From Bdellovibrionota bacterium (GTDB lineage Bacteria > Bdellovibrionota_B > Oligoflexia > Oligoflexales > Oligoflexaceae), in contig JAZKGL010000277.1 of NCBI GenBank assembly GCA_040385935.1, positions 1 to 53,579 of the forward strand: a stretch of DNA of 53,579 nt. Direction: 5' to 3'. Made by a program: the position numbers and the translations under genes. Shown here piece after piece: positions 4,929 to 53,579 of this stretch (position 1 is its first letter; each line of letters starts with the position of its first letter). Below the pieces are notes generated by a model. It worked only from the letters and a program-made list of their open reading frames with translations. It was not told the DNA's origin and searched no databases.

Positions 4929-5001
4929 CTAATCTTTGATCCAAGGCCAGGCAACTGCCGAACTTTTAACTGCTCTCACTGCTCTTACGAGACCAAAACT
5001 C

Positions 5002-6165: not shown

Positions 6166-6168
6166 GCC

Positions 6169-10730: not shown

Positions 10731-10746
10731 TTCGGAGGAGTTTGCG

Positions 10747-11269: not shown

Positions 11270-11794
11270 ATGAATCATTGCCTATACTCGTGGTCTGCGA
11301 TCCTGTTGCTCGCGCTTACCTTGTCTTGCAAGAGTTATAGAACCACGCCTGGAGTCCGCGAGTCGATTGCGGAACACGGGAAAAAGGTTAAGCCTGCACC
11401 GACTTTGAATTCCTCCGGCAAACCCATCGTTGACACGTCGAATACTGAAATCGAAGCCGATGACCTTTTCACAAAAGACGTTCTATTGATTGCTAGGCTC
11501 AATCTGTCGAGCGAGGTTGCGCAATACAATCGCAGCTGCGTGATTGTCCAGACCAAAGGCAAATCCGATGTCGTGATCCAAGATTATAAATTGGGGACAC
11601 CGATCGATCTCGAACCTTTTAAGGACTACACAGTATTAATCGAACTGTACATGGGGAGTTCCTTCATCTATTCCAACAGCTTTTGCGAAACGGGCCGAAC
11701 TTTCAACGCTAGCGTTGGACGAAATATTTTCACTTTCCCTGTTTGTTACAAGGAAAATGAAGAAGCTTTGCCAACCGCTGGCTGCGGAATGTGA
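11270..11794 (+). CDS. Hypothetical lipoprotein, first gene of a four-lipoprotein operon
   Basis: Lipobox LTLSC; beta-rich C-terminal half with several Cys. Confidence 0.6.
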   Translation: MNHCLYSWSAILLLALTLSCKSYRTTPGVRESIAEHGKKVKPAPTLNSSGKPIVDTSNTEIEADDLFTKDVLLIARLNLSSEVAQYNRSCVIVQTKGKSDVVIQDYKLGTPIDLEPFKDYTVLIELYMGSSFIYSNSFCETGRTFNASVGRNIFTFPVCYKENEEALPTAGCGM

Positions 11795-11854
11795 AAGCCT
11801 TTTAGACTCCTTGTCTCAGATGATCATTCACTTAAGTCATAGAATGGATTCGAC

Positions 11855-13447: not shown

Positions 13448-13466
13448 TCCACTCGCCGAGGATGGA

Positions 13467-26463: not shown

Positions 26464-26488
26464 GTAGGCTCCCTTGCTTACAATTAGT

Positions 26489-26515
26489 CTATCGGTCACA
26501 CGGCTATAGACTTGA
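26489..26515 (-). promoter_or_regulatory. Sigma-28-like promoter for the Big_2 operon
   Basis: TCAAGTCT-N11-ACCGATAG. Confidence 0.6.
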
Positions 26516-38107: not shown

Positions 38108-38134
38108 TAAAGATTGAAGTAAGAATTCCGAAAG
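38108..38134 (+). promoter_or_regulatory. Sigma-28-like promoter for the barrel-TPR-TPR operon
   Basis: TAAAGATT-N11-TCCGAAAG. Confidence 0.55.
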
Positions 38135-38156
38135 TCCTTGGTGAACCTCTCCAAGG

Positions 38157-39596
38157 ATGGGATGCATGCGTTATAGGTTAGCAAATATTGCCCAGTTAGG
38201 ACTCGCCCTCGGCGTCGTCCTCGCCGCGCACGTATTTGCGACTGATGGAGCGTGGGCCGAACCAGCCGTTATTCGTTATACCGATGAAGCAGCCGGATTT
38301 ATTGTGATCGATCAAGCCCCAGGAGACTGGAAGGATGGTGATCAAGTTTGTTTATTTGATAGCAAAGATGGCTTTTCAAGCTGCGAAGTGACGTTTCGCT
38401 GGCACACGCGCCAAGCCTTGCTCTTTCCAGGCAAGACCTACTTCGAACGTTTCGAAGTGGGTCAGGCTATCGATGTTAGGAAGATCTATCTTGGCAATCG
38501 GGATACCGAGTCGCCGCTCGATGTCATGACCTACAAAAACGAAATCAAAGCGGCAAGCGATCACAAGCTGAGTCAGACCAAGACGACCGATAATCTTAAA
38601 AGGCAAAAATTCGCCAAGGGTATGGCGCCTGAAGTTACTGTCGAAGTCCCAACGATTGAAGGCGATGAGTTCCCAGAAATCCTTATTCCTAAGCTTCACA
38701 AACAGAAAATCAAGCGAGATCGCGATACCTCGGACATCGCCTTGATTCGAAAAGGCCTCAAACGCACCCTAAAGAATCGCGATCAGGTGAAGTACCAATT
38801 CGCAAGTCTTGGGGCCCCTGAAGAAGTTCTGCCGCCAGTGATTCGAGACGACTATCCCAATCCCTTGAACGGAGCACTCAAGTTGAGTGTCTACAGCGCG
38901 ACGCCCCTCTTTCCCATGAGTGCATTTGATACCTTAAGATTCAAAACGATTACAAATCAAACAGTGAATCGTAATTCGCTCTGGAATCAAAGCAAAACCA
39001 AGCTTGAGGCGGACCAGGGCTACGGCCTTAACCTGCAAATTACCAGCCGGATGAAGTCTTTCGTCAACGTGGGCTGGCGTTATCATAACTACAATGCCCT
39101 AGACTCTCGCTCAACCTTTGATGAGTTTGATGTCAGTCTTATCGCGCTCAACAAGACTCGCGTAAACGAGCAAATTATCTATGCCGACTGGGGTCAGGTT
39201 CAGAACTGGACGGACTGGTACTACACGAGCTGGGCCTTTGGCAGTGATCTAGCGTATACAGATGTGAACTTTGACAGTCGCGTGGATAAAACCGATTCCG
39301 GTGCCTCTTTCATTTTGGCAAATGCACGACAAAGCTTTCTGACGATCGCACCTCGCGTTGTGTTATCAACCGGAGTCGAACGCTACGGCTTTGGGTTTAA
39401 CCTTGGTATGGCGCTGCAGATTCCAATCTATGACTTTAAGAAATCGTTTAAAGGGGAAGTGACTGTGCCCGAGCGTGTTCGATTCCAAGGTTCGGCCGTC
39501 GATGATCTCAAGAATTCGCTGACAGGCAAACGTAATGCCTTTGGTGCAGAAATATTTATCGGAATAAGCTATCAACCACAGAGGAAATCGAGATGA
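38157..39596 (+). CDS. Secreted protein with small N-terminal beta domain and C-terminal outer-membrane beta-barrel
   Basis: Signal peptide ending AWA; GFIVIDQAPGDWKDGDQVCLFD; C-terminal amphipathic strands (YGLNLQ, VNVGWRYH, FGFNLGMALQIP, FGAEIFIGISY). Confidence 0.55.
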   Translation: MGCMRYRLANIAQLGLALGVVLAAHVFATDGAWAEPAVIRYTDEAAGFIVIDQAPGDWKDGDQVCLFDSKDGFSSCEVTFRWHTRQALLFPGKTYFERFEVGQAIDVRKIYLGNRDTESPLDVMTYKNEIKAASDHKLSQTKTTDNLKRQKFAKGMAPEVTVEVPTIEGDEFPEILIPKLHKQKIKRDRDTSDIALIRKGLKRTLKNRDQVKYQFASLGAPEEVLPPVIRDDYPNPLNGALKLSVYSATPLFPMSAFDTLRFKTITNQTVNRNSLWNQSKTKLEADQGYGLNLQITSRMKSFVNVGWRYHNYNALDSRSTFDEFDVSLIALNKTRVNEQIIYADWGQVQNWTDWYYTSWAFGSDLAYTDVNFDSRVDKTDSGASFILANARQSFLTIAPRVVLSTGVERYGFGFNLGMALQIPIYDFKKSFKGEVTVPERVRFQGSAVDDLKNSLTGKRNAFGAEIFIGISYQPQRKSR

Positions 39597-42487
39597 ATAC
39601 ACGATCGATTTTGCTAATGTATTCTCTTGCCTTTTGTTTCTTAGTCTGGCCTGACGGCAGCAGCCAAGCCGAGCCTCGTGTGTTGCGCCTTGAAGGAAAG
39701 GAGTTAGGCAACCGCCTACTTTTACCTTTGCTGGTTGATCCCTCGCGTCTGCGAGAGATTCCGCAGAATGAAACCGCGCTAAAAGCCTTAAACGAAACGC
39801 TAGCCTCGGACAAGAAAGCTTTCGCTACGGAAGACCGAAAAGCCTTTTATGCCAAGCGGGTCTTTAGCAGCCTAAGCTTAAAAGCCTCCTACTGGCTTCG
39901 GCAAGCGAATGCATCGGACACCTTGGTTATCGATGCGCGGGATAAAGCGCTCCTTGAACTTTTGAACTTTGCTCCCGTCGCATTGAAGTTTGTTAAAGAA
40001 TCGGACCAAAGACAAGAAATCCAGTTGTCCTGGGGTTTGAGTCAATACGTGAAGAATCCGGCTAGCGCAGTAAAGACTCTAACAAAAGTCAATCCTCGCA
40101 ATTCCTCTGAGCGTGATTTGACGACTTATCTGATGGCCCTGCAGCGGTTGCGCAATGGAGATGCCGGTGCTCTTAGTCATTTGGAAGCTAGCTCTTCGCG
40201 CCTCGGAAAACAAGCGTCTATCACCACCGCCTTGGTTAAGGCCCAGTATTTATCATCACGCAAAGAAAATTATCGGCCAGAACTCCTCTATGCTTCGCGA
40301 CTTTGCCAGGAGCTTACCGCGGTTCAAAAGGAAGCTGTATTCCAGCAAAGTCTTTTGACTTGGACTAAGAGTTCAGATTTCAAAGGTCAATGGGAACCCG
40401 TTCCCTTCCAAGTGAACTGTTTCCAAAAGACCGCGAGTTTCCCTGCTTTTATGGAAGAGCTGGCAATTTTTGCCATAAATCTAGGACAGCTCGACAAGGC
40501 GATTGCTTACTATCAGCAGGCTGTCCTCGGTGCGAAGGCTGAACGCGAACGGGCGGAACTTGCCATGCGTTTTGTAGCAACGCATCGCCTAGCTTATCAG
40601 CGCAATGGGCGAAGGGAGGCTTATCAGACGGCGTTGATCGATAGCGAGCGCATGTTTCATGCGTTGCCCCAAGGTATAAAAATGCTCCAACTTCATGATG
40701 AACTTATTGCTGGCGAAGTCGCTTTAGGATTAAAGGCCGAACCCTCTTCCGCTCAGGTGACGAACACGCGCGTTGTTTACAATCGCTACATGGAATCAGC
40801 AAGCTTTAGCCCCGGTGCACGAAGAATCCGTGGCTTATGGGTTGATTTGCTCGTAATGAATAAAGAGATCGACGAGGCTATCGAGACCCTCTTGAGTCTG
40901 AGCCGCGGTAGCGCCGGCATCGTTCGGCAGTCCTATGTGAACCGTGCGCTTGATCTCCAGAATCAAATGCTCGCATGGAATGAATCCAACCCTTGGCAGC
41001 TGAACCCGGCCGCTGATATCCGGCAGCTCGCACGGCTAGGACAAATCGTTGATCTCATGGCCGCCTCAGGGCAAAACAAAAGCTCCCTGCAGATACTGAG
41101 GGCTCAGATCGCGCAGCGTCTTGGCTTGACTCAGGAGGCGCGCATTCGCTTCCAAAAGACTTTGATGACGGCAACCAAGCCTTCCGATCAAAATAAGATT
41201 TTCACGACACTCCTTCTCTCTGCACTCAATTCGATGGATCTGCCCGAAATTGAGCGTCTTTCGGAAGAATCCTTTGCCAAAGGATTTCAACTGAGCGAAG
41301 CGTTGCCCGAAAACAAGTCGATCAAACAACTCTACCTCGATACCCTGGTAGCTATGGTCGAGAATCTCTACACTCGCTCCGAGTGGCTAAAGTCGCGTGC
41401 GAAGGTGGATAAAGTGATTCCTCTGCTCGCGGATGTCGCTTTGCGCAATCGACTTTTGTATATGAAAGCACGGAGCTTTCAAAACGAATCTATGTTCACC
41501 GACGCACTCGCGAGCTTGGACATAATCGATGCCAGTTCACTCTCGAACGAACTGTGGCAGGAGGCTGTCCTTGAAAAAGCTACGCTCCTCCTCGGACAAG
41601 CAAACATCGAAGGTTCGACTTTATCTTATGAACGCTATCTCTCCGTGCTGCCTAACGGCGAACGTGTAAATGAAGTTCGTATTGGATTAGTGGACCTTTT
41701 GATGGCTCAAGGTCGGTGGGCTGATGCTCGGACCCATTTGCGCACCCTCATTCTCAATCCGGGGAGTGACGAAGAGGATCTAAATATCTGGGGGCAAAAG
41801 CTGGTTGAGGTTCATAAGAACCTTTTGGACGTCAATTTACTTTCGCAGGATATCGATGCATTCAATAAGCTGAAATTTGAAAATAAATCTGTATTGGCTC
41901 AGCTCCTGCATATCCAGCTCAAGAAAGTGCCTCATCTGGAAGTCGAGAAGTATTTCCTTGAACAGGACTTCAGTGTGAGTTCCGTTCAAGATCTCATAAC
42001 TGAAAGCGCTTATCTGAAAGCCAAAGAATACTCGGCAAAGAATTATGCAACTCTAGAAAGCAAACTTCGCTCGCCGGCCCCTGTCCAAGAAAACGAAGTG
42101 AGAACGGCCTACGATTCATTAGCCAAGGTCTACCTAAAAGTTTGTGATCGACCAGGGTCCGCTTACTGCGCGTTAGCACTCGGTGAGCTTGTTCACGAAA
42201 TTGATCGCTACCAGGATTTGGCATCGACTTTAAAATCCGGAGAGCAAAAGAGCTTGGCCGTCGAAGCCTACTTGGGAGCCGAAAAAATTGCTCTTGAGAA
42301 ACAGGTGCAGGATGCGGTTCGCATCCGCAGCGGTGCTGCTCAGTGGCTGGGTGAGCAAAGTCGAGAGGACGAAAGCATGTGGCGCTACATAGGCGTCAAT
42401 CTGCAAAAAGGGATAGGCACCCTGGATTTGCCAAGTCTTATTTCCAAAGATGCATCTCTTCACTATAGCCAAGGAGGCCCTCAATGA
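39593..42487 (+). CDS. Large secreted TPR/alpha-solenoid protein (GltD/AgmU-like)
   Basis: Signal peptide ending SQA; TPR helices (LGQLDKAIAYYQQA, YERYLSVLPNG, QGRWADARTHL); C-terminal YLKVCDRPGSAYCALAL. Confidence 0.65.
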   Translation: MNTRSILLMYSLAFCFLVWPDGSSQAEPRVLRLEGKELGNRLLLPLLVDPSRLREIPQNETALKALNETLASDKKAFATEDRKAFYAKRVFSSLSLKASYWLRQANASDTLVIDARDKALLELLNFAPVALKFVKESDQRQEIQLSWGLSQYVKNPASAVKTLTKVNPRNSSERDLTTYLMALQRLRNGDAGALSHLEASSSRLGKQASITTALVKAQYLSSRKENYRPELLYASRLCQELTAVQKEAVFQQSLLTWTKSSDFKGQWEPVPFQVNCFQKTASFPAFMEELAIFAINLGQLDKAIAYYQQAVLGAKAERERAELAMRFVATHRLAYQRNGRREAYQTALIDSERMFHALPQGIKMLQLHDELIAGEVALGLKAEPSSAQVTNTRVVYNRYMESASFSPGARRIRGLWVDLLVMNKEIDEAIETLLSLSRGSAGIVRQSYVNRALDLQNQMLAWNESNPWQLNPAADIRQLARLGQIVDLMAASGQNKSSLQILRAQIAQRLGLTQEARIRFQKTLMTATKPSDQNKIFTTLLLSALNSMDLPEIERLSEESFAKGFQLSEALPENKSIKQLYLDTLVAMVENLYTRSEWLKSRAKVDKVIPLLADVALRNRLLYMKARSFQNESMFTDALASLDIIDASSLSNELWQEAVLEKATLLLGQANIEGSTLSYERYLSVLPNGERVNEVRIGLVDLLMAQGRWADARTHLRTLILNPGSDEEDLNIWGQKLVEVHKNLLDVNLLSQDIDAFNKLKFENKSVLAQLLHIQLKKVPHLEVEKYFLEQDFSVSSVQDLITESAYLKAKEYSAKNYATLESKLRSPAPVQENEVRTAYDSLAKVYLKVCDRPGSAYCALALGELVHEIDRYQDLASTLKSGEQKSLAVEAYLGAEKIALEKQVQDAVRIRSGAAQWLGEQSREDESMWRYIGVNLQKGIGTLDLPSLISKDASLHYSQGGPQ

Positions 42488-43317
42488 AACGCCTAGCCTT
42501 AATAACATTACTCGCTGCATCGTGTCAGTCTACCTCTCAATCCGAGGCTGAATCGGGCGCTCAGTCTCGCTTGTGGCTCCTTATGCGCAACGGCCGCTTC
42601 GAGGTATCGGGTGGAGCAGCCGATGTGAAAAGCTCGCCTGAACTCGATCCGATTTTAAAGGCCGCGCACGATCTCCAATGGGACAAAGTAAAGGTCTTAG
42701 CTGAAGCCCATTTGCAAAGGTTTCCCGGCAATAAAGATGGTCTCTTACTCCTCTCTCTCGCGTATTCGGGTTTAGGTGATTCCGCTCGAAGCCGCTTCTT
42801 TGCTGAGCTGGTTTTAAAAGGTCACCCAGGCAACGCTTTTGCCCTCAATATCCTTGGCCTTCTCAAAAAATCTAGCGCTGTCCTACCCGAGGATAATCGT
42901 CAGGCTCTCGTCTACTTTCAACTCGCCCAGCAAGCCGCTCCACAAAATCCTATCGGTGCGCTGAATTCTGCTTATTTGAATCTTGAACTCGGAAATTTCC
43001 AAGAGGCGCGAAGCGATTTCAAACTTGCGTCTACTAAGTGCGACGATTGTAACGAAGCACGCATCGGCTCAGCTTTATCAAATCAGGCTTTGGGATTGTT
43101 TGATGAGGCCAAAATCGATATCGATGCTGTCTTAGCTCGCGAGGAGAGCCATCCCGTGGCTTTGCTTTTGCTCGCCACTCAATCGCTCTATCTGAAAAAA
43201 GAATACGACGAAAGCCGAAAGCTGTTAACAGCTCTTTTGGATAATGTGCAAAGTGGGAGTGAGTTGCGAAAAGAAGTGCGAACCATGCTCAACCGTATGG
43301 ATGGGATGGCTCATTAA
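42484..43317 (+). CDS. TPR lipoprotein (GltE/AglT-like)
   Basis: Lipobox LAASC; TPRs ALNILGLL, ALNSAYLNLELGNFQEARSDF, ALGLFDEAK; ATGA overlap. Confidence 0.75.
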   Translation: MKRLALITLLAASCQSTSQSEAESGAQSRLWLLMRNGRFEVSGGAADVKSSPELDPILKAAHDLQWDKVKVLAEAHLQRFPGNKDGLLLLSLAYSGLGDSARSRFFAELVLKGHPGNAFALNILGLLKKSSAVLPEDNRQALVYFQLAQQAAPQNPIGALNSAYLNLELGNFQEARSDFKLASTKCDDCNEARIGSALSNQALGLFDEAKIDIDAVLAREESHPVALLLLATQSLYLKKEYDESRKLLTALLDNVQSGSELRKEVRTMLNRMDGMAH

Positions 43318-43318
43318 C

Positions 43319-44449
43319 TTAGTCAAAATCAAGGATGATGGTCTGACCAGCGGTTTTGGCTAAACTATCTAAGCTTTTGCTTTCGTAGTTTAAATCACGC
43401 GATCGACTTTTAACTGTCGCTCCCTTTGAGACTTTTTCAACAAACCAAGTGTATTGACCGGTCTTGATCTTTACAGATTCGCTGAAGGAACGTGTTTCTT
43501 TCTGAATCGGAGCGCGCCCTTTGATCTGTAGGGTCAAACGATAGCGCTCGCCCGCCTTCAACTCTTTGTCATCCGACCAGGAAAAGCGCTGAATCCTCTC
43601 AACCGATTTTCCGAGGATGACCGCTCGGGCTAATGGGTACTCGAGAGCCAGAGCATCCGATTCCGCTGTCTTGGAATGATCTGTGGACGACAAGCTTTTA
43701 TCGACCGTAAAGGATATCGCTTCCGATCGATACTGATGCTTGGCATCTTCGATCTGCAGTTTGTAACGGCCGCTTTTATTGAGGACGAGGGTATACCAAG
43801 TCTCTTTTTGACTCACGACAGGCGAGGTGCGAACCTCGTCTTCCTGCCAAACGTAGATGCGATAGGTCAGACCATCTTTTGGTGGATTCCAAATGAGGGG
43901 AATTTTTGTTTGACCCTCGAGGAAGAAAAAGGCGTCGTCGCCGGGTGATAAGATTTCGATAGGTAGAAATTTGGCGCCGATCTGCACCGATTCCTCTTCC
44001 GAGGTTTCATCTTTCACTTGAGGAAGCTCCAGAGACTTGTCGAGTGTCACGATGCTGCGAAAGAAACTGGAAGCAAAACTTAGGAGCGGAGTATCTTTGA
44101 TTTCTTTTTTAGCTTCAGGTCCATGATCCCAGATCGCTTTAAGAGGGTAGGGCCTGGTTTCCATCTTGCGTATTAGATCTTCATCGAGCCTTGTGATCAT
44201 CGGCTGGATAATACGAACTTTACGGTCAACCTTCTCCCCATCCATCTTCAAGGAAATCTCAATACGCGAACCCAGATCGGTGCGTATCAGAGATCCAATT
44301 GGAATGCTCTTAGCTTTGAGAGGACGCCACTCGGTATCCATAGGTCCTTTGATAGCCACAAAGCCTTTTTTCGACACGACTTCATACACCGGTTGGGCGT
44401 GAAGGAAAGGTGTGAAGCTCAAAAGAACAAAGGTGAACCAAAGTCTCAT
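43319..44449 (-). CDS. Secreted protein with FecR-like N-terminal segment and two Ig/FN3-like domains
   Basis: Signal peptide ending LHA; KGFVAIK....EWRPL....IPIGSLIRTDLGSRIEI; IEILSPGDD..LIW and LEYPLAR..FSW..GQYTWFVE domains. Confidence 0.55.
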   Translation of the reverse strand: MRLWFTFVLLSFTPFLHAQPVYEVVSKKGFVAIKGPMDTEWRPLKAKSIPIGSLIRTDLGSRIEISLKMDGEKVDRKVRIIQPMITRLDEDLIRKMETRPYPLKAIWDHGPEAKKEIKDTPLLSFASSFFRSIVTLDKSLELPQVKDETSEEESVQIGAKFLPIEILSPGDDAFFFLEGQTKIPLIWNPPKDGLTYRIYVWQEDEVRTSPVVSQKETWYTLVLNKSGRYKLQIEDAKHQYRSEAISFTVDKSLSSTDHSKTAESDALALEYPLARAVILGKSVERIQRFSWSDDKELKAGERYRLTLQIKGRAPIQKETRSFSESVKIKTGQYTWFVEKVSKGATVKSRSRDLNYESKSLDSLAKTAGQTIILDFD

Positions 44450-45468
44450 GGCCGAGGCTCAGTTTCTGCCACGGGTTGATTTGCCTGTGGTGCTTTTATT
44501 AACTCAAGCTTTCGTTTAAGTTCGTGGGTGCCGCTATTCAAGGCCGAAATCATGGGCTCGAAGTCTTGAAAGAATTCTCCCGGCTGGTGCTGAGTCGGGA
44601 TTTGCAGGCCAAGGGAAAAGTCTTGAAACGAGGCGGCAAGGACTTGAATCTGATCACGAAGATTCATGATAAAGAATCGACCGAGCAGAAGGAGAAAGGC
44701 GATGCCGAAAAAGAGAGCGCCTAAAAACCAAGTGCTAGGTTTCCAAAGGGGAGCAAAAATAAGGGAAGCGGGCGATTCGGCGAAAAGCGTGAGATTGCTT
44801 TGGTTCATGTGCATAGCAAAACCCAGGACCTTCATTCCGGAATCTGTATAAGGAGCGGATCCTGAGCGGGTGAGAGGTGTTCGGATAAACTCTTGCACAA
44901 GTGGTTTTTTCAAAAGTGCTTCTTGCGGTTCGGCGCGGTCGGATTGAAAGACCGGCTTGCCCCGACTATCGAGAAGAAAGATTCGTGTGGGAGCGACATC
45001 AGCGAATAGCGCAAGATCACCTTTATCCAAAGTCCATAGACCCCAGTAGTAGCCTGCCGAGAGGAATGCGCCATGGAACTGGGTCTCAGGAAGGAGCAAG
45101 GGACAGATCAGATAGAGTGAGCCTGCAACGTTTTGAGTGTCACAGCTGCTCTCGGGAGGTGCATTGGTCATGAGGCCCTCAGGCATCTGACCACGAACGG
45201 CGACTATTTTTGCCGCCTTTTTCTGCATAAGTGCGACAGGCTCGCGCTTGAATTGAAGACTGCCTGAGCCACTCGCGAAGGTGGTAAATTGATCGAGTGA
45301 CCGATCAAATCTTTGCGCGAGCTGTTCAAAGTTGAGAAATGTAATCATACGGCGGTTATCAAGTTCGCTCTTGAGATAAAAGTAGAGCAGCCCGCCGCAA
45401 ATTATTGTGGGTACGAGGATGAGCGATACGGTCAGGATCAGCGACCAAAGCCTAAGGCCAGTTTTCAT
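44446..45468 (-). CDS. Two-TM membrane protein with Cache-like periplasmic domain and HAMP-like tail, no output domain
   Basis: N-terminal TM; IFLLDSRGKPVFQSD...GMKVLGF...NLTLFAESP; second TM; LRDQIQVLAASFQDFSLG...DFEPMISALN, then the protein ends. Confidence 0.55.
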   Translation of the reverse strand: MKTGLRLWSLILTVSLILVPTIICGGLLYFYLKSELDNRRMITFLNFEQLAQRFDRSLDQFTTFASGSGSLQFKREPVALMQKKAAKIVAVRGQMPEGLMTNAPPESSCDTQNVAGSLYLICPLLLPETQFHGAFLSAGYYWGLWTLDKGDLALFADVAPTRIFLLDSRGKPVFQSDRAEPQEALLKKPLVQEFIRTPLTRSGSAPYTDSGMKVLGFAMHMNQSNLTLFAESPASLIFAPLWKPSTWFLGALFFGIAFLLLLGRFFIMNLRDQIQVLAASFQDFSLGLQIPTQHQPGEFFQDFEPMISALNSGTHELKRKLELIKAPQANQPVAETEPRP

Positions 45469-46277
45469 GGTTTATCCTTTGGATCAGTCGTTTTACGAGA
45501 AACAATTAGCTCCAATCGGCGGTTTTGTTTACGGGCATCGCTGAGAGCTGACCCATTCAACTGACGAATCGAAATAAGCGGTGATGTGTCCGCAGCTCCA
45601 CTGATCTTCAATTTTTGACCAGCGAATCCATGGGTTTGGAAATAGTCGCCGACGCTCGCAGCTCGTGCGGCAGAGAGCGACCAATTGCTCGACCATTCAC
45701 CGCCGGTTCGTGGCAGGATATCATCCGTATGTGCGATGACCTCCAGCTTCACCATATCTTTCATTTTAAAAAGCGTCTGAGAGATCTCGGCGAGCTTAGC
45801 CGTCGCGGCTGGTGTGAGAGTCGCTGAGCCACTGTTAAAGCCCGCATCGGTGGGGATTATGATTTTGAGGCTGGAGTCAGCCGCAAAACTTACATCGTTC
45901 ACACCGTCTTCACCCATTTTTTTGGCAAAAACATCTTTCAAAGCTTTGGCTTGTTTTTGATCCGCAAACTTCTTTTCGATGTCGCTCACGGCGGTTGAAG
46001 GGTTGAGTTCAATCATTTTAAGCAGGAGCTGGAAAGCACGCGCTTGACGTTCTTCGTTCGCCGGGGTATCGATGTGTTCCATGACGGGACGCTCAAAGCC
46101 GCTTAGCGATTCCCCAATCTTCTTTTGAAGTTCTTTCACACGTCCATCATCAGACACCGCTTTGTACATCAGGACGAAAAAACCAAACATCAAAGTCATG
46201 AGATCAGCGTAGGAGACTAGCCAGCCTTCGCCTTCTTCTTCGTGCTGCTGATGATGCTGATGATGCTTGCTCGCCAT
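45465..46277 (-). CDS. motB: Motor stator protein MotB (OmpA-like peptidoglycan-binding domain)
   Basis: GWLVSYADLMTLMFGFFVLMY TM with the essential Asp; FNSGSATL, EVIAHTDD, SNWSLSAARAASV, NRRLELIV. Confidence 0.93.
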   Translation of the reverse strand: MASKHHQHHQQHEEEGEGWLVSYADLMTLMFGFFVLMYKAVSDDGRVKELQKKIGESLSGFERPVMEHIDTPANEERQARAFQLLLKMIELNPSTAVSDIEKKFADQKQAKALKDVFAKKMGEDGVNDVSFAADSSLKIIIPTDAGFNSGSATLTPAATAKLAEISQTLFKMKDMVKLEVIAHTDDILPRTGGEWSSNWSLSAARAASVGDYFQTHGFAGQKLKISGAADTSPLISIRQLNGSALSDARKQNRRLELIVSRKTTDPKDKP

Positions 46278-46313
46278 AGCGTGCCCCGATGCGTGGTTCT
46301 CGTACTTTTAGGA

Positions 46314-47105
46314 TTAAACAGCTTTTTTACCGCTTTCTCGTTGACTCGGAAGCAGGTAGGATTTGGTTTTCTCTTCGACGAATTTGGTCGGCTTGCGCTC
46401 ATGGATCAGCATGATGCCTTCGATAATCATCAGGCGCAGAGTGAAGTCGTCTTTGGATCGTTTGGTTAAATATTCGCCCATAGGCAAAAAGACTATGTTG
46501 GCAAAAACCAATCCGTAAAGCGTCGCAAGCAGAGCGAGGGACATGGACGTACCGATGTTGTCGGAGTTACCTTTGCCAATTGCTTGGAGAAGCGCGATCA
46601 TGCCCATGGTTGTTCCCATAAGTCCGAAGGCTGGCGGGAACTTGGCAAGGGTCTTGAAAATACCTGCATCCTGGGAGTAGGTGGCAAACACGGTATTTGC
46701 ACGAAGCTCAAGCATTTCTCTGAGTTCGTCTTTAGAAATGTCGGCTTCGGTCCAGGCTAAGACCTGTGCGGACTCGCGAAGAAAGGGATGTTTGGCCTGC
46801 TCACTGGCCGATCGAAAAGCTTCTTTCCCCTGCACGCGCGCTTGACTCAAAGCCACGATACCGGTCACGACATCGGCATTGGTCATCTTCTCTTTTTTCA
46901 TGAGAATGTCATTCATGATGACTTTAAGCAGTTTTAAAACCTGGCCGTATGGGAAACAAGCAAAGCTCAGCGCGATGGTTCCGCCAATTACGAGAATGAT
47001 ACTGTGAAGGTCAAAGAGAATCCACAGGTTGTCGAGAGTCATAGCTAAGGAAATGGCTACAACCACTATACTCGCCAGGTATCCAAGTATGATCGCAAAA
47101 TTCAT
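46314..47105 (-). CDS. motA: Motor stator protein MotA (short PomA/MotP-length type)
   Basis: SIILVIGGT, AR..G, HPFLR, PAFGLMGT.MGMI, IG.SMSLALLATLYG...N.VFLP, IEGIMLI; 263 aa. Confidence 0.93.
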   Translation of the reverse strand: MNFAIILGYLASIVVVAISLAMTLDNLWILFDLHSIILVIGGTIALSFACFPYGQVLKLLKVIMNDILMKKEKMTNADVVTGIVALSQARVQGKEAFRSASEQAKHPFLRESAQVLAWTEADISKDELREMLELRANTVFATYSQDAGIFKTLAKFPPAFGLMGTTMGMIALLQAIGKGNSDNIGTSMSLALLATLYGLVFANIVFLPMGEYLTKRSKDDFTLRLMIIEGIMLIHERKPTKFVEEKTKSYLLPSQRESGKKAV

Positions 47106-47177
47106 AAGGCACCTTAAGGGTGTGGGGGCTCACGTTTGATTATAGATGGTTCGCAAGTTCTCGGGCCTCGGCAGGGA

Positions 47178-47951
47178 TTACCGAGGTTCTTCGTCGGTCA
47201 CGCGGCGCGAAGCTTCGATTCGCGTTATGGTTTCTCTGAGGCGCATGGCACCTTCGCTTTCGAGCGGCTGAAGCTTGAGACTGGCCTGCAGCTCCTCGAG
47301 CGCGATCTGTGGCGAAGATAGATTCTGAGCTTCGAACAGAGCGCAATTTAGGGCGATCTCCCAGTTGTCCGCCGTCTCTTCTTTAAACTGTTCACACAAA
47401 GCATCCACACGATCGTTATCATCGAGTTGCCTATGCGCAGCGATAAGACCAAGGACGGCCCGCCTATCTTCTTTTAAGTCGTTGAAGTAGGGAATCGATT
47501 TGGCGAACTGCGCACCCTTTAGATAGAGGATACCCAGCGCCATCTTAGGGCGTGGGTCGAGAGGATCTTTCTCGATTAGCTTGAGCAGACCACTCTCTGC
47601 TACTCCATAGTCTTTTTGAGCAAGGGCCAGATGAGTCTTCAGCTTTACACTGAGTTTATAGCTTTCTTCCGACGGATAGATTTCAAATCGTTTGATGAGA
47701 TACTCAATCTTCGTCCAATTCCGTTCGTCGCCTACCATCGCGATGACACTGCGTTCGACTGCACGGCTTGCAGCAGCATCCAGACTTTTAAAGGAGTAGA
47801 GTCCCCTCTCAAAACGCTGAAGGAGTCCGGTCCAGCCCAAGGGCTGGTCTGCGTCCTGAGCATCAAACCGTTTTGCGGATAGAGAAGTCTGGCAGGCTGT
47901 ATTGATATATTGAAGACTGAGTATAAGCAGGAGAATCTTAGAACAGTTCAT
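47178..47951 (-). CDS. TPR lipoprotein (second GltE/AglT-like copy)
   Basis: Likely start ATG 47951 (GGGGGA upstream); lipobox NTAC; KDPLDPRPKMALGILYLKGAQFAKS, AVLGLIAAHRQL, IALNCALFE. Confidence 0.7.
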   Translation of the reverse strand: MNCSKILLLILSLQYINTACQTSLSAKRFDAQDADQPLGWTGLLQRFERGLYSFKSLDAAASRAVERSVIAMVGDERNWTKIEYLIKRFEIYPSEESYKLSVKLKTHLALAQKDYGVAESGLLKLIEKDPLDPRPKMALGILYLKGAQFAKSIPYFNDLKEDRRAVLGLIAAHRQLDDNDRVDALCEQFKEETADNWEIALNCALFEAQNLSSPQIALEELQASLKLQPLESEGAMRLRETITRIEASRRVTDEEPR

Positions 47952-50604
47952 CGTTCCCCCAAACCGGTAGGCGATCTTCCCACAGAATTTTATCTTTGCG
48001 AGCACGTTGCATGTCGAGGATTAGGCCTGCCGCATTCTCGTGCAGTAAACCAAAGTTTTCTAAGGTCTTAAGAGAGGAGCTTGCATAGGATTTTCCGCGC
48101 GCCGTCCACTGAGCCATGGGAGTTCTAAGCTCTGTTTCTATCACCTTGGGATCGAGGCCATCGATAGGCGGCAGACGTTCAAGAGTCTGGCTAAGATTGA
48201 AGGCGGCAGTCGCAAGGTCTGAGAGTGCGCTCGCTCCCCAGTACGGGTCTTTAGTCTGAAGGACTTTTAAATAGAGGTTTTCAAGTTCTTTATAGGCGGA
48301 ACGTTTGCCTTGAATAGCCGGCAATAGTTCATCACTTTGACTCGCAAATACCGGCAGATCTAGATAGAGCGGCAAGGACTTTTGAGCTACTTTATAAGCG
48401 ATCACTGAGTACAAGCGGCGAGTCGGTAAACTTAAATTAGAACTGTTTTCTGCATAAAGATCATAGAACAATGTCTTTATAGAATTTTGATAGTTGGGAA
48501 TCGTCTCAGTGCCCTCGAAGCCTGCCGCGAGGAGTGCGCTCTTATCATCTAGGCGAAGAGGAAGGACACTGACGGCGGGCGAGAGGATGAAGTTAAAGAG
48601 CGCGGCCGCTTCTTTTTGCCGAGCTAATTGTTTCGCCAAGTCGATCGCATAGTGATGGGCGTAAGTCATCGGTAGAAGACAAGATGACAAAGCTTCCAGG
48701 GGTTTATCTAAGATATCGAGTCGGCAGAGTATTTCGTCACGTTGGCGGTTTTGATCGACGGTCCAAGGAAGTGTTTTGGTTTTGATGAGGAGATCTCGAG
48801 CTGCACTAAGGGCAAGATTTGTTTCATAGAGTTCGGCGGCTTTTAAAGTGTAAGGCAGAGCATGAGGTCCGTCCGAGAACTTCTGAAGATATAGGCTGAG
48901 ATACCGGACCTGATCAAGCCATGAATCCTGACTGAGTGAAATGGCTCTTTCAATCGCTATGAGGGCTAGCTCCTCAGGGCGTTCTCTTTCGGCAAAACTT
49001 GCGTAAGCAGCAGCGCGATCGGATGGGCTCGCTAAAGTATCGATAAGTTGAAACTTTGCGGTGCGCAGATGATCGCGAATCAGTTTGCCACTCGGTCCGC
49101 TCTGAAGCTGAGGTACGAGGAGAAATTGTTCGCAGGCTCTGACTAGCTCTTGAGGTCGACTCGCAAAGAGCTTAAGCATAGGAGCTACGATACGAGGCGA
49201 TTCTTTGGGAAAACGCGAGACAAATAGCCACAGACGACGAATGGCAAGGTCAGAATCTTTTTGATTGATAGCCAACTGTATGCTGTAGGCCGCGCAGCTG
49301 CGTTGATCTTCGCTGGTCGAACGCTGAACCTCAGCATAAGCATCACACGCTTCTAAATACGTCCTTGCCGATATAAGTGCAGATCCCGATAAAGGTGCTT
49401 TATCCCCTTCAATCGTCGGCGCAGCCTTCTGGCTGGAATTTAACCAAGCTTCAGCGAGCTTAGGGTCCTTACGACCTTTAAGCTTAAGAATCCAGATCGT
49501 TTTATACTCGATACCGGCACGATCGAAGTCGCCCATATTTTCATGAAGTTTGGCCTTTAAGTGACGAAAGGGTAGTGCTTCTGATTGCGGGGCTTTCTCG
49601 ATAAACTGAGCAAGAGCCGCTGAGAGCTTGAGGCCTTCGGAGCGACTATCCTTGTCTATAATTTGTGAAACATTTTTTTCGGTTTCTTCGAGCAGCTTTT
49701 GACGAAGGTTCGATTTTGTATCGCTGTGCCTAGCAAGCACCCAAAGGGTGGTTTGCGTCCAGCCCACCTGACTTTGTAGGCTGGCTTTCTTCTCCTGCAA
49801 GGCACTTAGACCCTGTGATGCGTAGCTCAACGAGCGATCGGTGACAATAGGGAGTTCACTGAAGTTTCGGAAGGCTACTCGTTTTTGTGATTCACCGGAA
49901 GCCAGAGTTAAGAGGCAGATGGATAGCCACTCTTTATCGATGGCAGAAGGAATATTCGCCCAAAGAGTTTGGGGGTCCAAGCGGCTCGTTCCAAAGTCGA
50001 GTAATGCTTTTTGCAGATATTTCGGTGAGTTGAGTGAGTTTATTTCGCGAGCCGTAAGCGCTTTGGTCAGACTCTGCCAAGCTTCGGAAATATTGCCTTG
50101 TTGCAAAGACATCTCCGCAAGGCGCCAGTTTACAAACGCGATCAAAACGGGATTTTTGGTAGAGATCAGGCGATAAGCAGCCGGTGTATTTAAAACCTCG
50201 GCACGAAGAAAGAGCTGGATATCACTGAGCGGGAGCTGCGACAGAGTTCGGTTTGCGATATCGTTTTGCTGACTGGCAAGGAGTATCGATGCCCACATGA
50301 GTTTGAGTCCGGGGGATGGTCTTCGCTCAAGAACCAAGTAGCGTTGAATCTCGACAGATAGCTGCAGCGCATCGAGAGCGTAGGTATTGGCCAAAGGTTT
50401 TGATGCCCAGGAGTTAAAACGCTGGGCCAATGCTTGCTCTTTAGAATTCAGCGGAATGGTCTGAAAGCTAGAAACAAGATGGGACTGAACTTCGGAGTAG
50501 GGCAAACGCATTTTCTGCAAACGACACTCATCACTCGGCGCCGCTGCGAGTAACGCAGCGCGGCTTAGAGCTATCGTCAGAATGAGGCGCGTAAGCCAAG
50601 TCAT
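47938..50604 (-). CDS. Large secreted TPR/alpha-solenoid protein (GltD/AgmU-like C-terminus)
   Basis: Signal peptide; TPR-like helices; C-terminal KRSAYKELENLYLKVLQTKDPYWGASALSDLA...LERLPPIDGL. Confidence 0.65.
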   Translation of the reverse strand: MTWLTRLILTIALSRAALLAAAPSDECRLQKMRLPYSEVQSHLVSSFQTIPLNSKEQALAQRFNSWASKPLANTYALDALQLSVEIQRYLVLERRPSPGLKLMWASILLASQQNDIANRTLSQLPLSDIQLFLRAEVLNTPAAYRLISTKNPVLIAFVNWRLAEMSLQQGNISEAWQSLTKALTAREINSLNSPKYLQKALLDFGTSRLDPQTLWANIPSAIDKEWLSICLLTLASGESQKRVAFRNFSELPIVTDRSLSYASQGLSALQEKKASLQSQVGWTQTTLWVLARHSDTKSNLRQKLLEETEKNVSQIIDKDSRSEGLKLSAALAQFIEKAPQSEALPFRHLKAKLHENMGDFDRAGIEYKTIWILKLKGRKDPKLAEAWLNSSQKAAPTIEGDKAPLSGSALISARTYLEACDAYAEVQRSTSEDQRSCAAYSIQLAINQKDSDLAIRRLWLFVSRFPKESPRIVAPMLKLFASRPQELVRACEQFLLVPQLQSGPSGKLIRDHLRTAKFQLIDTLASPSDRAAAYASFAERERPEELALIAIERAISLSQDSWLDQVRYLSLYLQKFSDGPHALPYTLKAAELYETNLALSAARDLLIKTKTLPWTVDQNRQRDEILCRLDILDKPLEALSSCLLPMTYAHHYAIDLAKQLARQKEAAALFNFILSPAVSVLPLRLDDKSALLAAGFEGTETIPNYQNSIKTLFYDLYAENSSNLSLPTRRLYSVIAYKVAQKSLPLYLDLPVFASQSDELLPAIQGKRSAYKELENLYLKVLQTKDPYWGASALSDLATAAFNLSQTLERLPPIDGLDPKVIETELRTPMAQWTARGKSYASSSLKTLENFGLLHENAAGLILDMQRARKDKILWEDRLPVWGNDELF

Positions 50605-50710
50605 TGACTGCCTTTTTCCAGGTGCCTAAAAATTAAGTTGGTAACGATTTAAGTTTATCAGGAAGACACGAGGTAAAGGCTTCCCAGGGAGGGCCGAGTC
50701 CATAGACTTT

Positions 50711-51364
50711 CTAGAGGTAGGTTCGCCAGGCGAGCGTAAGTTCGGTCGAGGATGCGGTCGACTTTTCTATACTGGCTGAGAAGGAGAGCAGCGTCTGCTG
50801 GAGGCTAAGCCCAACGCTATTGTCCTGACCAATGAGATACTGAAATCCAAGGCCAGTCGTCCAAGAGATATTTGCGCCCTCCAGCGTCTCAATACCGATG
50901 GACGAGGGTGTGATTGAATAAGCATCGTACATTACGCGATTGATCCAACTGAGCGATAAATTGTTCTGACTTACAGCGGTGCCGACTTTAAGCCGTTCGA
51001 CAGTTCTTTTTTTACCGCCGAGTAGAGCCCAGGAAGTTCCTATGCCGAAGCCTTTGCGAATAATCTGCTGTGTGGCGCTATCGATCAAAAAATCAACGCT
51101 CAAAAACGCGGTTTGACGATCGAGTAGTCTTTCATTATAAAGACCAAGGCCGAGTAGAAACCCACCGAAGGATTTACTCACTTCGTCTTTATTCTTAAAC
51201 GTTCCAAATCCCGCTCCCGTGTGAACATCAAGGTCCCAGGGATCAATGCTCGGGACGGAAATCGTTTTGGTCACTTTTTTATCGCCCGCGTTGCTCACCG
51301 CCCAAAGAGAGGAGGATGAAACGGCAGCTAAAGATAATATAAAGAATTTAAGTTGATATCTCAC
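50711..51364 (-). CDS. Small outer-membrane beta-barrel protein
   Basis: Signal peptide ending LWA; alternating strands (GFGIGTSWAL, WTTGLGFQYLIG, VGLSLQQ); C-terminal TELTLAWRTYL. Confidence 0.6.
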   Translation of the reverse strand: MRYQLKFFILSLAAVSSSSLWAVSNAGDKKVTKTISVPSIDPWDLDVHTGAGFGTFKNKDEVSKSFGGFLLGLGLYNERLLDRQTAFLSVDFLIDSATQQIIRKGFGIGTSWALLGGKKRTVERLKVGTAVSQNNLSLSWINRVMYDAYSITPSSIGIETLEGANISWTTGLGFQYLIGQDNSVGLSLQQTLLSFSASIEKSTASSTELTLAWRTYL

Positions 51365-51948
51365 TTTTTGCTCAATCGAATAAGTTCGTCGATATCACGA
51401 TCTTCGGGATCCAAGTTTTTGGCTTTAAGAAAAGACGCCCGCGCCTTAGCCGGCACGCCCTCGGCAAGATAGGATAGACCGGTTAACACATGGGGCGCTG
51501 AAGCATCGGGTGAGACTTGGGAGAGCTGCTTTGATACTTCGCGGGCGGCTTCCCAGTCTTTTGCCGTCAGAGCTTTGTAAGCACGCATGAGCATGCGGTT
51601 ACTGCGGTTCAGCTCTTGAATTTTCGCCTGCGCATCGGAGTCATCTGGTTCCTCGCGCCGTTCTACGCGAAGGGTGATTTCATTTTTGCCATCAGTCAAA
51701 GGTTTGACGATCCAGTACTGGCTCTGAACGCCCTCGCCCCAGACTCGAACATATTGTTTTTTTAATTTACCGAGTTCGATGGCGACCGGTGTTTCGCCGA
51801 TCAAATCGCCTTCACCACCCTGATCATCATAATTGACAAGGCTAATATTCACTTTTTCGTTACTCACCAAGGTGAGTGTTGGGGTCGCGCAAGCTGTGTT
51901 TAGGCTAAGACTTGCGAGCAAAAGCTTGAAAAGGGATGTGGGTTTCAT
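51361..51948 (-). CDS. Lipoprotein with PEGA-like N-domain and C-terminal TPRs
   Basis: Lipobox NTAC; LTLVSN...LIGETPV; APHVLTGLSYLAEG...ARASFLKAKNLDPED. Confidence 0.7.
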   Translation of the reverse strand: MKPTSLFKLLLASLSLNTACATPTLTLVSNEKVNISLVNYDDQGGEGDLIGETPVAIELGKLKKQYVRVWGEGVQSQYWIVKPLTDGKNEITLRVERREEPDDSDAQAKIQELNRSNRMLMRAYKALTAKDWEAAREVSKQLSQVSPDASAPHVLTGLSYLAEGVPAKARASFLKAKNLDPEDRDIDELIRLSKK

Positions 51949-52021
51949 CTTTTACCTTAATTCTTTTCGATACCTGACGATAGGGAATCAGGATCTCAAC
52001 GCCCATATTGGGGAAGAGCAC

Positions 52022-53579
52022 ATGAGTTCGCTTCGCAGTCCAAAGCTTTTAACGGCAGTAGCTTTCATTATAGCTGGGCCTCTCGCCGTCGCACAAGGAA
52101 CCGGCAAGAAGGAACAGGCGATTGAAATGTCGGCTGAGGCTCGAAGCGCGGTTGTCCGGCGAGCTTTCCAAAATGATTTGCAGGGAACCCTCGATAAATA
52201 TCTTAAGCCTCATCAATATAATGTTCAGGTTCAGTTCGATCTAAATCAGGGTTCGAAAGCGGGCGAAGATGTTCCGTATGCACCCGACAATATTGTGTCT
52301 GATGCGTTCCAGGGCCTTCCTTCGGGAAAGCAACTCGATCAAATCAAAGACCTTAAAATTCAGGTGCAGGTTCCAAAGTGGGTGGATGAGGGGACCAAGC
52401 AAACTCTTCGTGCTATGGCCGAAAAAAGTCTGAGTGAAAAAACAGGTCGTCCTATCAAAGTCGGAATCGAGAGCGTCGCTCTTGATGTCGAAGAACCGAA
52501 AAAGAGTCCTGCTCTAAGTCCAGAGCCCCGGCCCGCCGCTCCTGCGGCTGCTGTTTCCGGCGGCGCTTTAGGTGCTGGCCAAGGCTTGTCACAAGGTGGA
52601 GCGGCTGCATCTCAGGCTGACCTAACTCGCGCTATGAACGAAATCGCCGAGCTGAAAAAGAAAGTGGACGACACGCGGTCTGTCGATGCAAAGGCCGATA
52701 GGAATGGAAACGGAAATAGCCTGGAAAGCGCCGGTTCATCGTCGAGCGGTCACAGCTGGATTTCTGATTTGGTGAATATCGGTAAGCAGTATCCGATCGC
52801 AACCCTTGCGGCTCTTTCTATTCTCTATCTGCTTTTAGCCATCATCATTTTAATTCCTTCACGATCCTTGGTCTCAGGCTTCAAACAAATCGGTACAGCT
52901 TTCGATGCTCTCAGCCGCGCATTAAAGGGGATGGGCGATGCAATGGGCGCGCGTCGCGCGGAAGCCGCGGAGGACGATGCGGGGAATGAGGATACGGAGA
53001 CGGAAGCGACTATTCCTGTAGAAGCGGCTGTGGCGACAACCAAGCCGGTGCGTGATCACAGCCAAGAAGAATTGAACGAGAAGATTCAGACCATTCGCAT
53101 GAGTCACAAACAGGATTATGACCGTATCGTAATCGATTTGGTTTTAAACTATCTCCATGATCCGGAAAAATCGTACTGGGCCGTCTTTCTACTCGACATC
53201 GTGGGTCGCGAACATGCGCGACGCGTTTTTGAAAGCTTAGACGCAGCCGATCAAGAAGAGCTGATGCGGCTTGTGAAGCACTCGATTCCAGAAGATCGCA
53301 TCGATGCCAATATCGAATTAGTGGAAGCGTATCAGATGCGACTTCTCACTTTTGGTTGGAAGGGCGGCGGCAAATCGCGAAGTCTTGATCCTGATATCCA
53401 ACGGATAGTCTCTCAGCTTGCCTTTGAAGATATTGCGCCTATTCTGAATCGTTTGGGTGAGACGGGTATTCGACGATTTATGCTCTATCTCGATTCCAAG
53501 ACTATGGGCCAGTTGATTCGAAGTGTTCGCAGAAATCCTCAGAGCCAAAGATTTTTGATTCAGCTGCTCGCCCGAATGC
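52022..53579 (+). CDS. Partial ORF (>=519 aa, runs off the window; absent from the ORF track): putative FliF-FliG fusion rotor protein
   Basis: Translated by hand with no stop from ATG 52022 (GGGGAAGAG upstream). Signal peptide; FliF RBM3-like LQGTLDKYLKPHQYNVQVQFDL..QIKDLKIQVQV..TKQTLRAMAEKSL..GRPIKVGIESV; one TM ~52795-52860; FliFc-like LNEKIQTIR..RIVIDLVLNYL; FliG-N-like WAVFLLDIVGREHARRVFESLDAADQEELMRLV; FliG-M-like LNRLGETGIRRFMLYLDSKTMGQLI. Confidence 0.7.
   Translation, partial: MSSLRSPKLLTAVAFIIAGPLAVAQGTGKKEQAIEMSAEARSAVVRRAFQNDLQGTLDKYLKPHQYNVQVQFDLNQGSKAGEDVPYAPDNIVSDAFQGLPSGKQLDQIKDLKIQVQVPKWVDEGTKQTLRAMAEKSLSEKTGRPIKVGIESVALDVEEPKKSPALSPEPRPAAPAAAVSGGALGAGQGLSQGGAAASQADLTRAMNEIAELKKKVDDTRSVDAKADRNGNGNSLESAGSSSSGHSWISDLVNIGKQYPIATLAALSILYLLLAIIILIPSRSLVSGFKQIGTAFDALSRALKGMGDAMGARRAEAAEDDAGNEDTETEATIPVEAAVATTKPVRDHSQEELNEKIQTIRMSHKQDYDRIVIDLVLNYLHDPEKSYWAVFLLDIVGREHARRVFESLDAADQEELMRLVKHSIPEDRIDANIELVEAYQMRLLTFGWKGGGKSRSLDPDIQRIVSQLAFEDIAPILNRLGETGIRRFMLYLDSKTMGQLIRSVRRNPQSQRFLIQLLARM

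Follow-up and report, generated by a model that had tools for sequence, protein, structure and literature searches.

A FliF-FliG fusion gene and its own motAB pair in Bdellovibrionota: candidate parts of a non-flagellar rotary machine in the cell envelope

Investigating a contig from a Bdellovibrionota bacterium of the family Oligoflexaceae (JAZKGL010000277.1, assembly GCA_040385935.1), we found flagellar-type stator genes, motA and motB, within a block of envelope genes (positions 38157-53579) that ends in a divergently transcribed gene joining a FliF-like to a FliG-like part; fusion, stator and recurring neighbours are here called the module (Table 1). The window, that is the whole stretch of 53,579 nucleotides analysed, is the entire contig C277 of its genome, G000 (82% complete, 3.3 Mb in 464 contigs); other genomes are given as G0xx, contigs as Cxx and fetched loci as Lxxx. 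The 17 proteins of positions 19801-53579 were scanned against Pfam and NCBIfam and five further ones against Pfam alone, the remaining upstream open reading frames (ORFs) being read by eye. By these means the ORFs yielded no recognisable rod, hook, filament, FliM/FliN or export gene, in agreement with a preliminary description of this DNA. The same description had the genes of the block joined by overlaps of 4-14 bp, which holds for six of the 11 junctions; the other five have gaps of 1, 36, 72, 106 and 73 bp, and with three directions of transcription the block is not one operon. Promoter and terminator scans remained at or below chance, cluster look-ups of 20 proteins returned almost no names, and a word-index homologue search gave five matches in all.

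Table 1. Features of the module and its surroundings in the window (aa, amino acids; OM, outer membrane; TM, transmembrane)
Feature	Position	Strand	Standing	Basis
Three Big_2 Ig-like lipoproteins	19801..26499	-	candidate cargo	Pfam Big_2
Two ~1900-aa Fn3/TIG lipoproteins	26659..38057	+	candidate cargo	Pfam fn3, TIG; lipoboxes
barrel479, 479-aa secreted protein, probable C-terminal barrel	38157..39596	+	rare accessory	sequence only
TPR964, unmatched to GltD	39593..42487	+	rare accessory	Pfam TPR
TPR277, 277-aa TPR lipoprotein	42484..43317	+	rare accessory	Pfam TPR, lipoprotein features
FecR376, secreted FecR-like and Ig/Fn3 protein	43319..44449	-	frequent accessory	lead-level Atlas matches 0.83-0.91
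Cache340, two-TM Cache-like/HAMP protein without SpoIIE	44446..45468	-	frequent accessory	TM helices, relatives
motB, TM Asp conserved, with plug and a peptidoglycan-binding OmpA domain	45465..46277	-	core	Pfam MotB_plug, OmpA; NCBIfam
motA, flagellar-type, module-specific clade	46314..47105	-	core	Pfam MotA_ExbB, NCBIfam, tree
TPR275, GltE-like TPR lipoprotein	47178..47951	-	rare accessory	hhalign
TPR888, homologue of GltD-position protein	47938..50604	-	rare accessory	hhalign
barrel217, small OmpA-type OM beta-barrel	50711..51364	-	core by position	Atlas TM ~0.6 to OMP_b-brl, structure
PEGA-TPR195, PEGA-like and TPR lipoprotein	51361..51948	-	core	TPR matches; invariant Cys20 in 7 sequences
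FliF(RBM3)-linker-TM-FliG fusion, incomplete: 519 aa up to the contig end	52022..53578	+	core; candidate rotor	structure model, profile, relatives

Judged from profiles and structure models, the divergent gene is a real fusion of the FliF domain RBM3 with FliG. Because its ORF runs into the contig end, the FliG C domain and the torque helix are known only from relatives; of the fusion announced in the preliminary description, RBM3 was found in the window copy itself and FliG N-M-C in its relatives, the window copy stopping before FliG-C. The remainder of the gene was not found on other G000 contigs by tblastn. Matches to the ORF occur in 12 of 41 related genomes, with full-length copies of 630-765 aa (about 580-820 aa across wider relatives); a profile of 12 fusion sequences matches T. 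maritima FliG-MC at E 2e-12, and E values of at most 1e-30 are reached by 116 representatives at the 50% identity level. Modelled with a 120-row alignment, the periplasmic RBM domain of the window protein reached a predicted local distance difference test score (pLDDT) of 86, and FliF RBM3 took the top three places among 48,161 chains (Z 10.4, 9.7 and 9.5; the next chain, not a FliF, Z 7.8), the best at Z 10.4 with a root-mean-square deviation (rmsd) of 3.8 over 99 aligned residues. A Foldseek search with only the RBM model found nothing at E 0.001 or better; FliF RBM3 (6sd1), listed at E 0.03, had the top query TM-score, 0.53, among OsmC and CDF-CTD folds. The hidden Markov model (HMM) of the fusion family aligns with real FliF at about 230-290 and 380-430, the flanks of RBM3, skipping the beta-collar (eight FliF-sized proteins, E 3.5e-7 to 0.012). 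In L011, a full-length relative with 57% identity (model pLDDT 64), residues 32-155 correspond to RBM3 and 378-679 to FliG N-M-C, the FliG-C domain superposing at an rmsd of 1.9 Å over 88 residues.

The fusion does not have the full FliF architecture of two TM helices, RBM1-3 and beta-collar: it contains RBM3 without the collar and, after the signal peptide, a single TM helix (259-277 in the window protein), joined to the FliG part by a long, variable linker of coiled-coil or low-complexity character. Among 119 homologues, the torque helix carries R/K in 80, E/D in 98 and E/D in 97 sequences at its three charged positions. The columns of the EHPQ FliM site and the GG linker are not conserved in these homologues, whereas 13-14 of 14 flagellar FliG sequences retain H/P/Q.

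As had been proposed, motA and motB are intact: both ORFs are complete and of flagellar type. Their best NCBIfam matches are PomA/MotA and MotD/MotB, every score lying under the equivalog cut-off. Of the 52 module MotB matches, 51 carry the Asp motif, and the Arg site of MotA is R or K in 43 of 54 module MotA proteins. In a MotA tree (114 proteins, quick IQ-TREE), the module copies form one clade of 54 rows (SH-aLRT 89; 95 for the 52 rows left without two long branches), and the flagellar MotA of G000 itself falls outside it. The MotA scan covered 3 of the 64 parts of the collection, and the range is stated for Bdellovibrio-like taxa.

How constantly these genes keep company was counted in a census of 53 loci with a fusion of at least 540 aa (32 chosen via the fusion, 21 via MotA; kin among the loci are not independent). 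Here motA is found in 49 loci (50 with G006, whose motA was lost to the ORF filter), motB in 48 and the PEGA-TPR gene in 44, as against none of 70 control motA loci; a barrel217-like gene was recognised in 16 by a narrow HMM. These counts are lower bounds, since many loci are cut at contig ends and some ORFs were lost to the filter. For the fusion-picked loci, motA is present in 29 of 32 (28 by script, plus G006), the three misses lying at contig ends. At E 1e-25 the fusion profile finds matches in 46 of the 105 genomes sampled from the window's phylum; a small number of these are FliG-only genes. In a 201-genome sample around a Bdellovibrio metagenome-assembled genome (MAG) many genomes have matches of 550-780 aa, some of them several; no count is given, because ordinary FliG scores there too. 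All 20 neighbourhoods fetched from this sample contain a module-type motA, and 19 of them motB. Named records bearing the module include Bdellovibrio, Bacteriovorax and Bdellovibrionales MAGs. The conserved core consists of the fusion, motA, motB, the PEGA-TPR lipoprotein and the small barrel, and genes for Cache-HAMP(-SpoIIE) and FecR-like proteins and for giant Ig/Fn3 lipoproteins often accompany it. Co-occurrence of TPR and barrel genes with motAB and the fusion is seen in other genomes for the core, yet a GltD-like gene is found in only six and barrel479 in five of the 53 loci. Variants of the module were seen as well: at G041:C29 (L271), two PEGA-TPR genes accompany a full fusion and a FliG-only gene of 344 aa; at L239, L251, L253 and L255, an extra gene of 340-390 aa with a weak fusion-profile match lies immediately upstream of the fusion.

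This motAB is not the sole pair of a normal flagellar cluster: other contigs of G000 hold a second motAB and a full flagellar set, in which FlhA, FliF, two ordinary FliG and four matches to rod/hook families were recognised. The two FliG genes of ordinary length (C94:6032-7033 and C214:1043-2035) are neither of them beside fliF, which is on C251. In G024 (96% complete, 70 contigs), where the module is intact, nothing matched FliF_C, FlhA, Flg_bbr_C or flagellin, and FliG_C matched the fusion alone. G053 was considered as a flagellum-less carrier, having no FliF match, but was rejected as FlhA and rod genes are present. On these sequence comparisons, the module is probably a dedicated non-flagellar stator-rotor pair.

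Further stator and rotor relatives were seen on the side. A second, different motAB cluster (L198, G040:C1:1557-1560k; L199, G025; L200, G039; L201, G024:C8) consists of a gene for about 350 aa, motA, a short motB (211-228 aa) and then a gene for 1390-1450 aa; the four genomes have no FlhA, rod or flagellin match, and this MotA forms a separate long branch. A stand-alone, divergent FliG-like gene of about 330 aa lies 3' of a lipoprotein gene of about 550 aa at L268:7510-8511, L269:7475-8467 and L270:7631-8623 (G040, G025 and G065); these genomes, two of them single-contig, have no flagellin match, and no motAB lies in the 16 kb fetched. The stand-alone protein could be the rotor for the second motAB cluster.

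The module also appears to be present in the predator Bdellovibrio bacteriovorus. Entries of the HD100 gene table (PMC3627812 supplement) give Bd3013 as 583 aa, Bd3014 as 577, Bd3016 as 325, Bd3017 as 194, Bd3018 as 302, Bd3019 as 205 and Bd3020 (motB) as 319, with Bd3021 as motA; the module of L237 has sizes of 583, 578, 325, 194, 302, 205 and 319 in the same order. The Bd3021 primer (PMC11323537 supplement) matches the motA of L237 exactly, with no match in L236. Because gene order and sizes follow L237 and the primer matches its motA, motAB2 of B. bacteriovorus (Bd3021/Bd3020) is assigned to the module as its stator, and Bd3014, annotated as hypothetical, would be the fusion by synteny with L237. 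Bd3026-28 are listed as giant ORFs in the table (PMC3627812). Two expression columns there, in reads per kilobase per million (RPKM), give 4 and 5 for Bd3014, 3 and 2 for motA2, and 332 and 25 for motA3; motAB2 reads 3-14 RPKM where motA3 is at 332. According to the array table of Lambert 2010, Bd3013, Bd3014 and Bd3021 are down in host-independent growth and little changed at prey entry, which is uninformative on function. Two-hybrid results reported in PMC11323537 have the flagellar FliL, Bd1076, binding MotB3 and not MotA2 or MotB2, and epibiotic predators are described as lacking motAB1 and mostly motAB2 (PMC11870529). The other pair considered as module stator, motAB1 (Bd0144/45), could not be tied to the module: Bd0130-0149 hold no neighbour of fusion size save Bd0148 (740 aa, unchecked).

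Turning to the envelope genes around the stator, the PEGA label of the core lipoprotein derives from a weak match in a relative (E 0.0014). Of two OM barrels claimed earlier, barrel217 is backed by Atlas features and structure; barrel479 has no Pfam or NCBIfam match and was judged a barrel from its sequence alone. Bdellovibrio loci carry one or two small barrels of the barrel217 type, and three barrels of Bdellovibrio/Bacteriovorax-type loci weakly match OMP_b-brl. The two TPR proteins of about 900 aa and three TPR lipoproteins, likewise claimed, were borne out: Pfam TPR matches TPR964, TPR277 and PEGA-TPR195, and TPR888 and TPR275, with weak Pfam matches, resemble the TPR proteins of the genome's own Glt clusters. 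The TPR888 profile found no solved structural relative. A complex prediction for barrel217, the RBM domain and the PEGA-TPR lipoprotein scored 0.22 against a mark of 0.32, with controls that did not fold, and counts neither for nor against such a complex.

The N-terminal domain of the two giant Fn3/TIG lipoproteins was detected in 13 proteins from 10 module loci, two of these loci being Bdellovibrio-type at low score; in G000 the domain family matches just these two among 3078 ORFs. Homologues of the Big_2 lipoproteins adjoin the module in G005, G006, G002, G008, G030, G069 and G024. A link between giant lipoproteins and the module is suggested by these sequence matches. The upstream part of the window, judged from translations, holds a Tat-signal protein resembling enzymes of the carotenoid-oxygenase family (105-1967, +) and an RND efflux operon with periplasmic adaptor, AcrB-like and TolC-like lipoprotein genes, followed by thioredoxin (4936-11187, +). 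Three lipoprotein-like genes follow (11270-14816, +), two of whose products (530 and 449 aa) look alike by eye and have no Pfam match.

A possible mechanism can be outlined from these parts. The fusion would be exported via a cleavable signal peptide, held by its one TM helix, and would oligomerise with RBM3 outside and FliG N-M-C inside; MotA5B2, fixed to the peptidoglycan by the OmpA domain of MotB, would turn against the charged FliG-C helix as in the flagellum. There would be no CheY switch, export gate or rod, and turning would be one-way, with no filament driven, because the EHPQ FliM site, RBM1/2 and the beta-collar are gone. The coiled-coil linker and a PY-x-P loop in the collar's place may reach the PEGA-TPR lipoprotein and the small barrels, which in turn would hold surface lipoproteins; Cache-HAMP(-SpoIIE) and FecR-like proteins would regulate the motor, and in Oligoflexus-like genomes the GltD/GltE-like pair may have been recruited as an additional scaffold. 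The arrangement of motor, ring and lipoprotein may be likened, by analogy only, to the motor-ring-adhesin system of Bacteroidota. We give an even chance to a stand-alone ion-driven rotary motor acting via an OM platform of lipoprotein and barrel on giant Ig/Fn3 lipoproteins. The handling of lipoproteins as output, be it moving or displaying the neighbours, falls a little short of that, and ring, rotation, OM coupling and cargo, taken jointly, stand at even chance or slightly below.

Several points weigh against this reading. Only 20 of 54 module MotA proteins retain the torque-pair Glu, compared with 51 of 56 flagellar ones, and the window protein has Arg at this site. The MotA tree comes from a quick IQ-TREE search only, with two module rows as long branches, and the flagellum-free case is one MAG, G024. 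ORFs of at least 1200 aa occur in 21 of 53 module loci, which is about twice the own-genome baseline (0.24 per 19.5 kb), and in 2 of 70 control loci, the controls coming from other phyla. A barrel the size of eight strands is too narrow for the passage of a folded lipoprotein, and the coupling of a rotating ring across the peptidoglycan without a rod is an unexplained gap of the model, in which ring, rotation and output are predicted. Each motAB pair of B. bacteriovorus reportedly contributes to motility (work of Morehouse et al. in 2011), which counts against an exclusive role of motAB2 in the module. A 2026 review likewise speaks of three motAB pairs powering one propeller (PMC13689555), and the two-hybrid negative is weak, given that the MotA2-MotB2 pair itself scored nothing in the reported assay (PMC11323537).

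The alternative that stands best, although we hold it unlikely, is a mechanosensor, in which stator and ring sense load or envelope contact and signal via Cache-HAMP-SpoIIE and FecR-like proteins, the lipoproteins serving as antennae or regulated targets. The Cache/HAMP-like protein of the preliminary description was confirmed by its two TM helices and by HAMP and SpoIIE phosphatase domains on full-length relatives; the FecR-like assignment holds at lead level only. Cache-like genes are found in 30 and FecR-like genes in 25 of the 53 census loci, and translational coupling ties them to motB in the window; a strong rise of motA2/motB2 expression in fliL mutants (PMC11323537) would also fit a sensor. 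However, the Cache protein of the window is without the phosphatase domain, 23 of the 53 loci have no Cache-like gene within the fetched DNA, and the retained torque-helix charges suit force generation equally. As to the output of the Cache-HAMP gene, SpoIIE occurs in many loci (L035, L032, L068, L078, L081 and L237 were compared), the gene carries HAMP-Hpt-HATPase in one locus (L036:14127-16736), and within the window's genus it has no output domain.

Still less likely, in our opinion, is the hybrid gliding engine of the preliminary description, in which MotAB and the fusion replace AglRQS and drive a Glt-type TPR/OM scaffold with adhesins for surface motility, prey attachment and export being further outputs proposed there. 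Its GltD/GltE-like part proved genuine: TPR888 matches the GltD-position proteins of the genome's own Agl-Glt clusters (hhalign 99.4%, 691 columns) and TPR275 the own GltE-like set (98.7%, a score that TPR likeness may inflate), TPR277 resembling GltE as well; the comparison was made with Glt-position proteins of the same genome and not with a curated GltD model. Such genes lie inside the block in five same-genus genomes and in G057. TPR964, on the other hand, does not match GltD (11%), and both window barrels compare with OMP_myx_plus (GltA/B/H-type) at 0.7-1.8% in hhalign. Neither GltC, GltG/GltJ nor OMP_myx_plus was matched by NCBIfam among the 17 window proteins, and the same models do match proteins of C29. 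That contig holds the cluster aglRQS-barrel-gltC-(D)-gltE-gltG, which includes the AglRQS-like genes of TolQR type, the window motor being of MotA/PomA type by NCBIfam. Two more contigs, C200 and C244, also carry Glt-like clusters, and all three clusters score below the Myxococcus equivalog cut-offs. The Glt scaffold is not core, because GltD-like genes are limited to six loci, the barrels are unlike GltA/B/H and a separate Agl-Glt cluster exists. TPR888 and TPR275 are, by their sequences, a Glt-derived pair and a lineage-restricted accessory.

Improbable, too, is an accessory flagellar stator, with motAB serving the flagellum at times and the fusion acting as dock, reservoir or relic. This would accord with the published view of B. 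bacteriovorus motAB2 (in the review cited above), with the flagellar type of the stator and with the flagellated state of most module carriers (FliF_C in 92 of the 105 genomes of the phylum sample), but it sits badly with the intact module of G024, with a MotA clade tied to the fusion, and with a fusion that keeps the charged helix and loses the FliM site. A non-rotating energiser, where the fusion as a single protein or small oligomer passes on MotAB energy in TonB/TolA fashion to drive uptake or envelope upkeep via an OM barrel, would explain the long variable linker and the FecR-like partner, but is most improbable: known structures show both RBM3 and FliG N-M-C building rings, and the window proteins scanned (Pfam/NCBIfam) yielded neither a TonB box nor a TonB-dependent receptor.

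Compared with known machines, the proposed motor shares with the flagellar core the RBM3 fold, FliG N-M-C with torque helix, and MotA/MotB with plug, Asp and OmpA domain; it differs in that FliF and FliG are fused, with signal peptide, one TM helix and no RBM1/2, collar or EHPQ site, and in having no linked rod, hook, filament or export genes, but an OM barrel and a PEGA-TPR lipoprotein as partners. In the Bacteroidota, GldLM-GldKN-SprB of type IX secretion and gliding is a 5:2 ion motor that turns a ring moving or exporting surface adhesins; the ring of the module would instead be an inner-membrane derivative of FliF and FliG, and GldL, GldM, GldK and GldN did not turn up in the general Pfam/NCBIfam scans of the window proteins, no dedicated search having been made. 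With Agl-Glt of Myxococcus and Bdellovibrio, the window shares GltD- and GltE-like TPR proteins and the theme of small OM barrels with surface lipoproteins, whereas the motor is MotAB and not AglRQS, GltC/G/J are unmatched, the barrels are of another family and the Glt-like pair is rare. Zorya ZorAB is likewise a MotAB-like pair outside the flagellum, and module MotB weakly matches ZorB models (E 4e-12), but module MotA is without the ZorA tail, and the nine other module proteins of 10 scanned have no ZorA or other defence-model match. A natural FliF-FliG fusion in one chain is described for Chlamydia, at about 330 aa and with two TM helices, RBM2, no SpoIIIAG-like RBM3 and the FliG M region only, where the module has RBM3, one TM helix, FliG N-M-C and a dedicated MotAB; engineered FliFG fusions of Salmonella and Vibrio are reported there to rotate still (PMC4768692).

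No description of the module was found in searches of the open-access literature, and the text available of a MotAB phylogeny paper (PMC12505986) and of a preprint from 2026 that treats the ancestral flagellum (PMC13277936) makes no mention of such a module. The assignment of B. bacteriovorus motAB2, so far published as a flagellar stator, to a module next to Bd3014 is an addition to the preliminary description. To our knowledge, FliG and flagellar-type MotAB work together only in flagella. It is conceivable, if somewhat short of an even prospect, that the module represents a third type of ion-powered rotary machine in the envelope, in which a flagellar rotor-stator core pared down to one ring protein and one stator spins a filament-free periplasmic ring that moves or displays giant lipoproteins, with motAB2 as the stator in B. 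bacteriovorus, and which would be either a repurposed flagellar motor or a pre-flagellar survivor. If true, the conserved pairing of FliG with MotAB in the absence of rod and filament would mean that the torque core can run another machine, which would bear on the origin or repurposing of the flagellar motor; one motAB pair out of three counted as 'flagellar' in the predator B. bacteriovorus would have to be re-read, and the module, as Bd3013-Bd3021 with Bd3026-28, would be testable in a tractable model organism.

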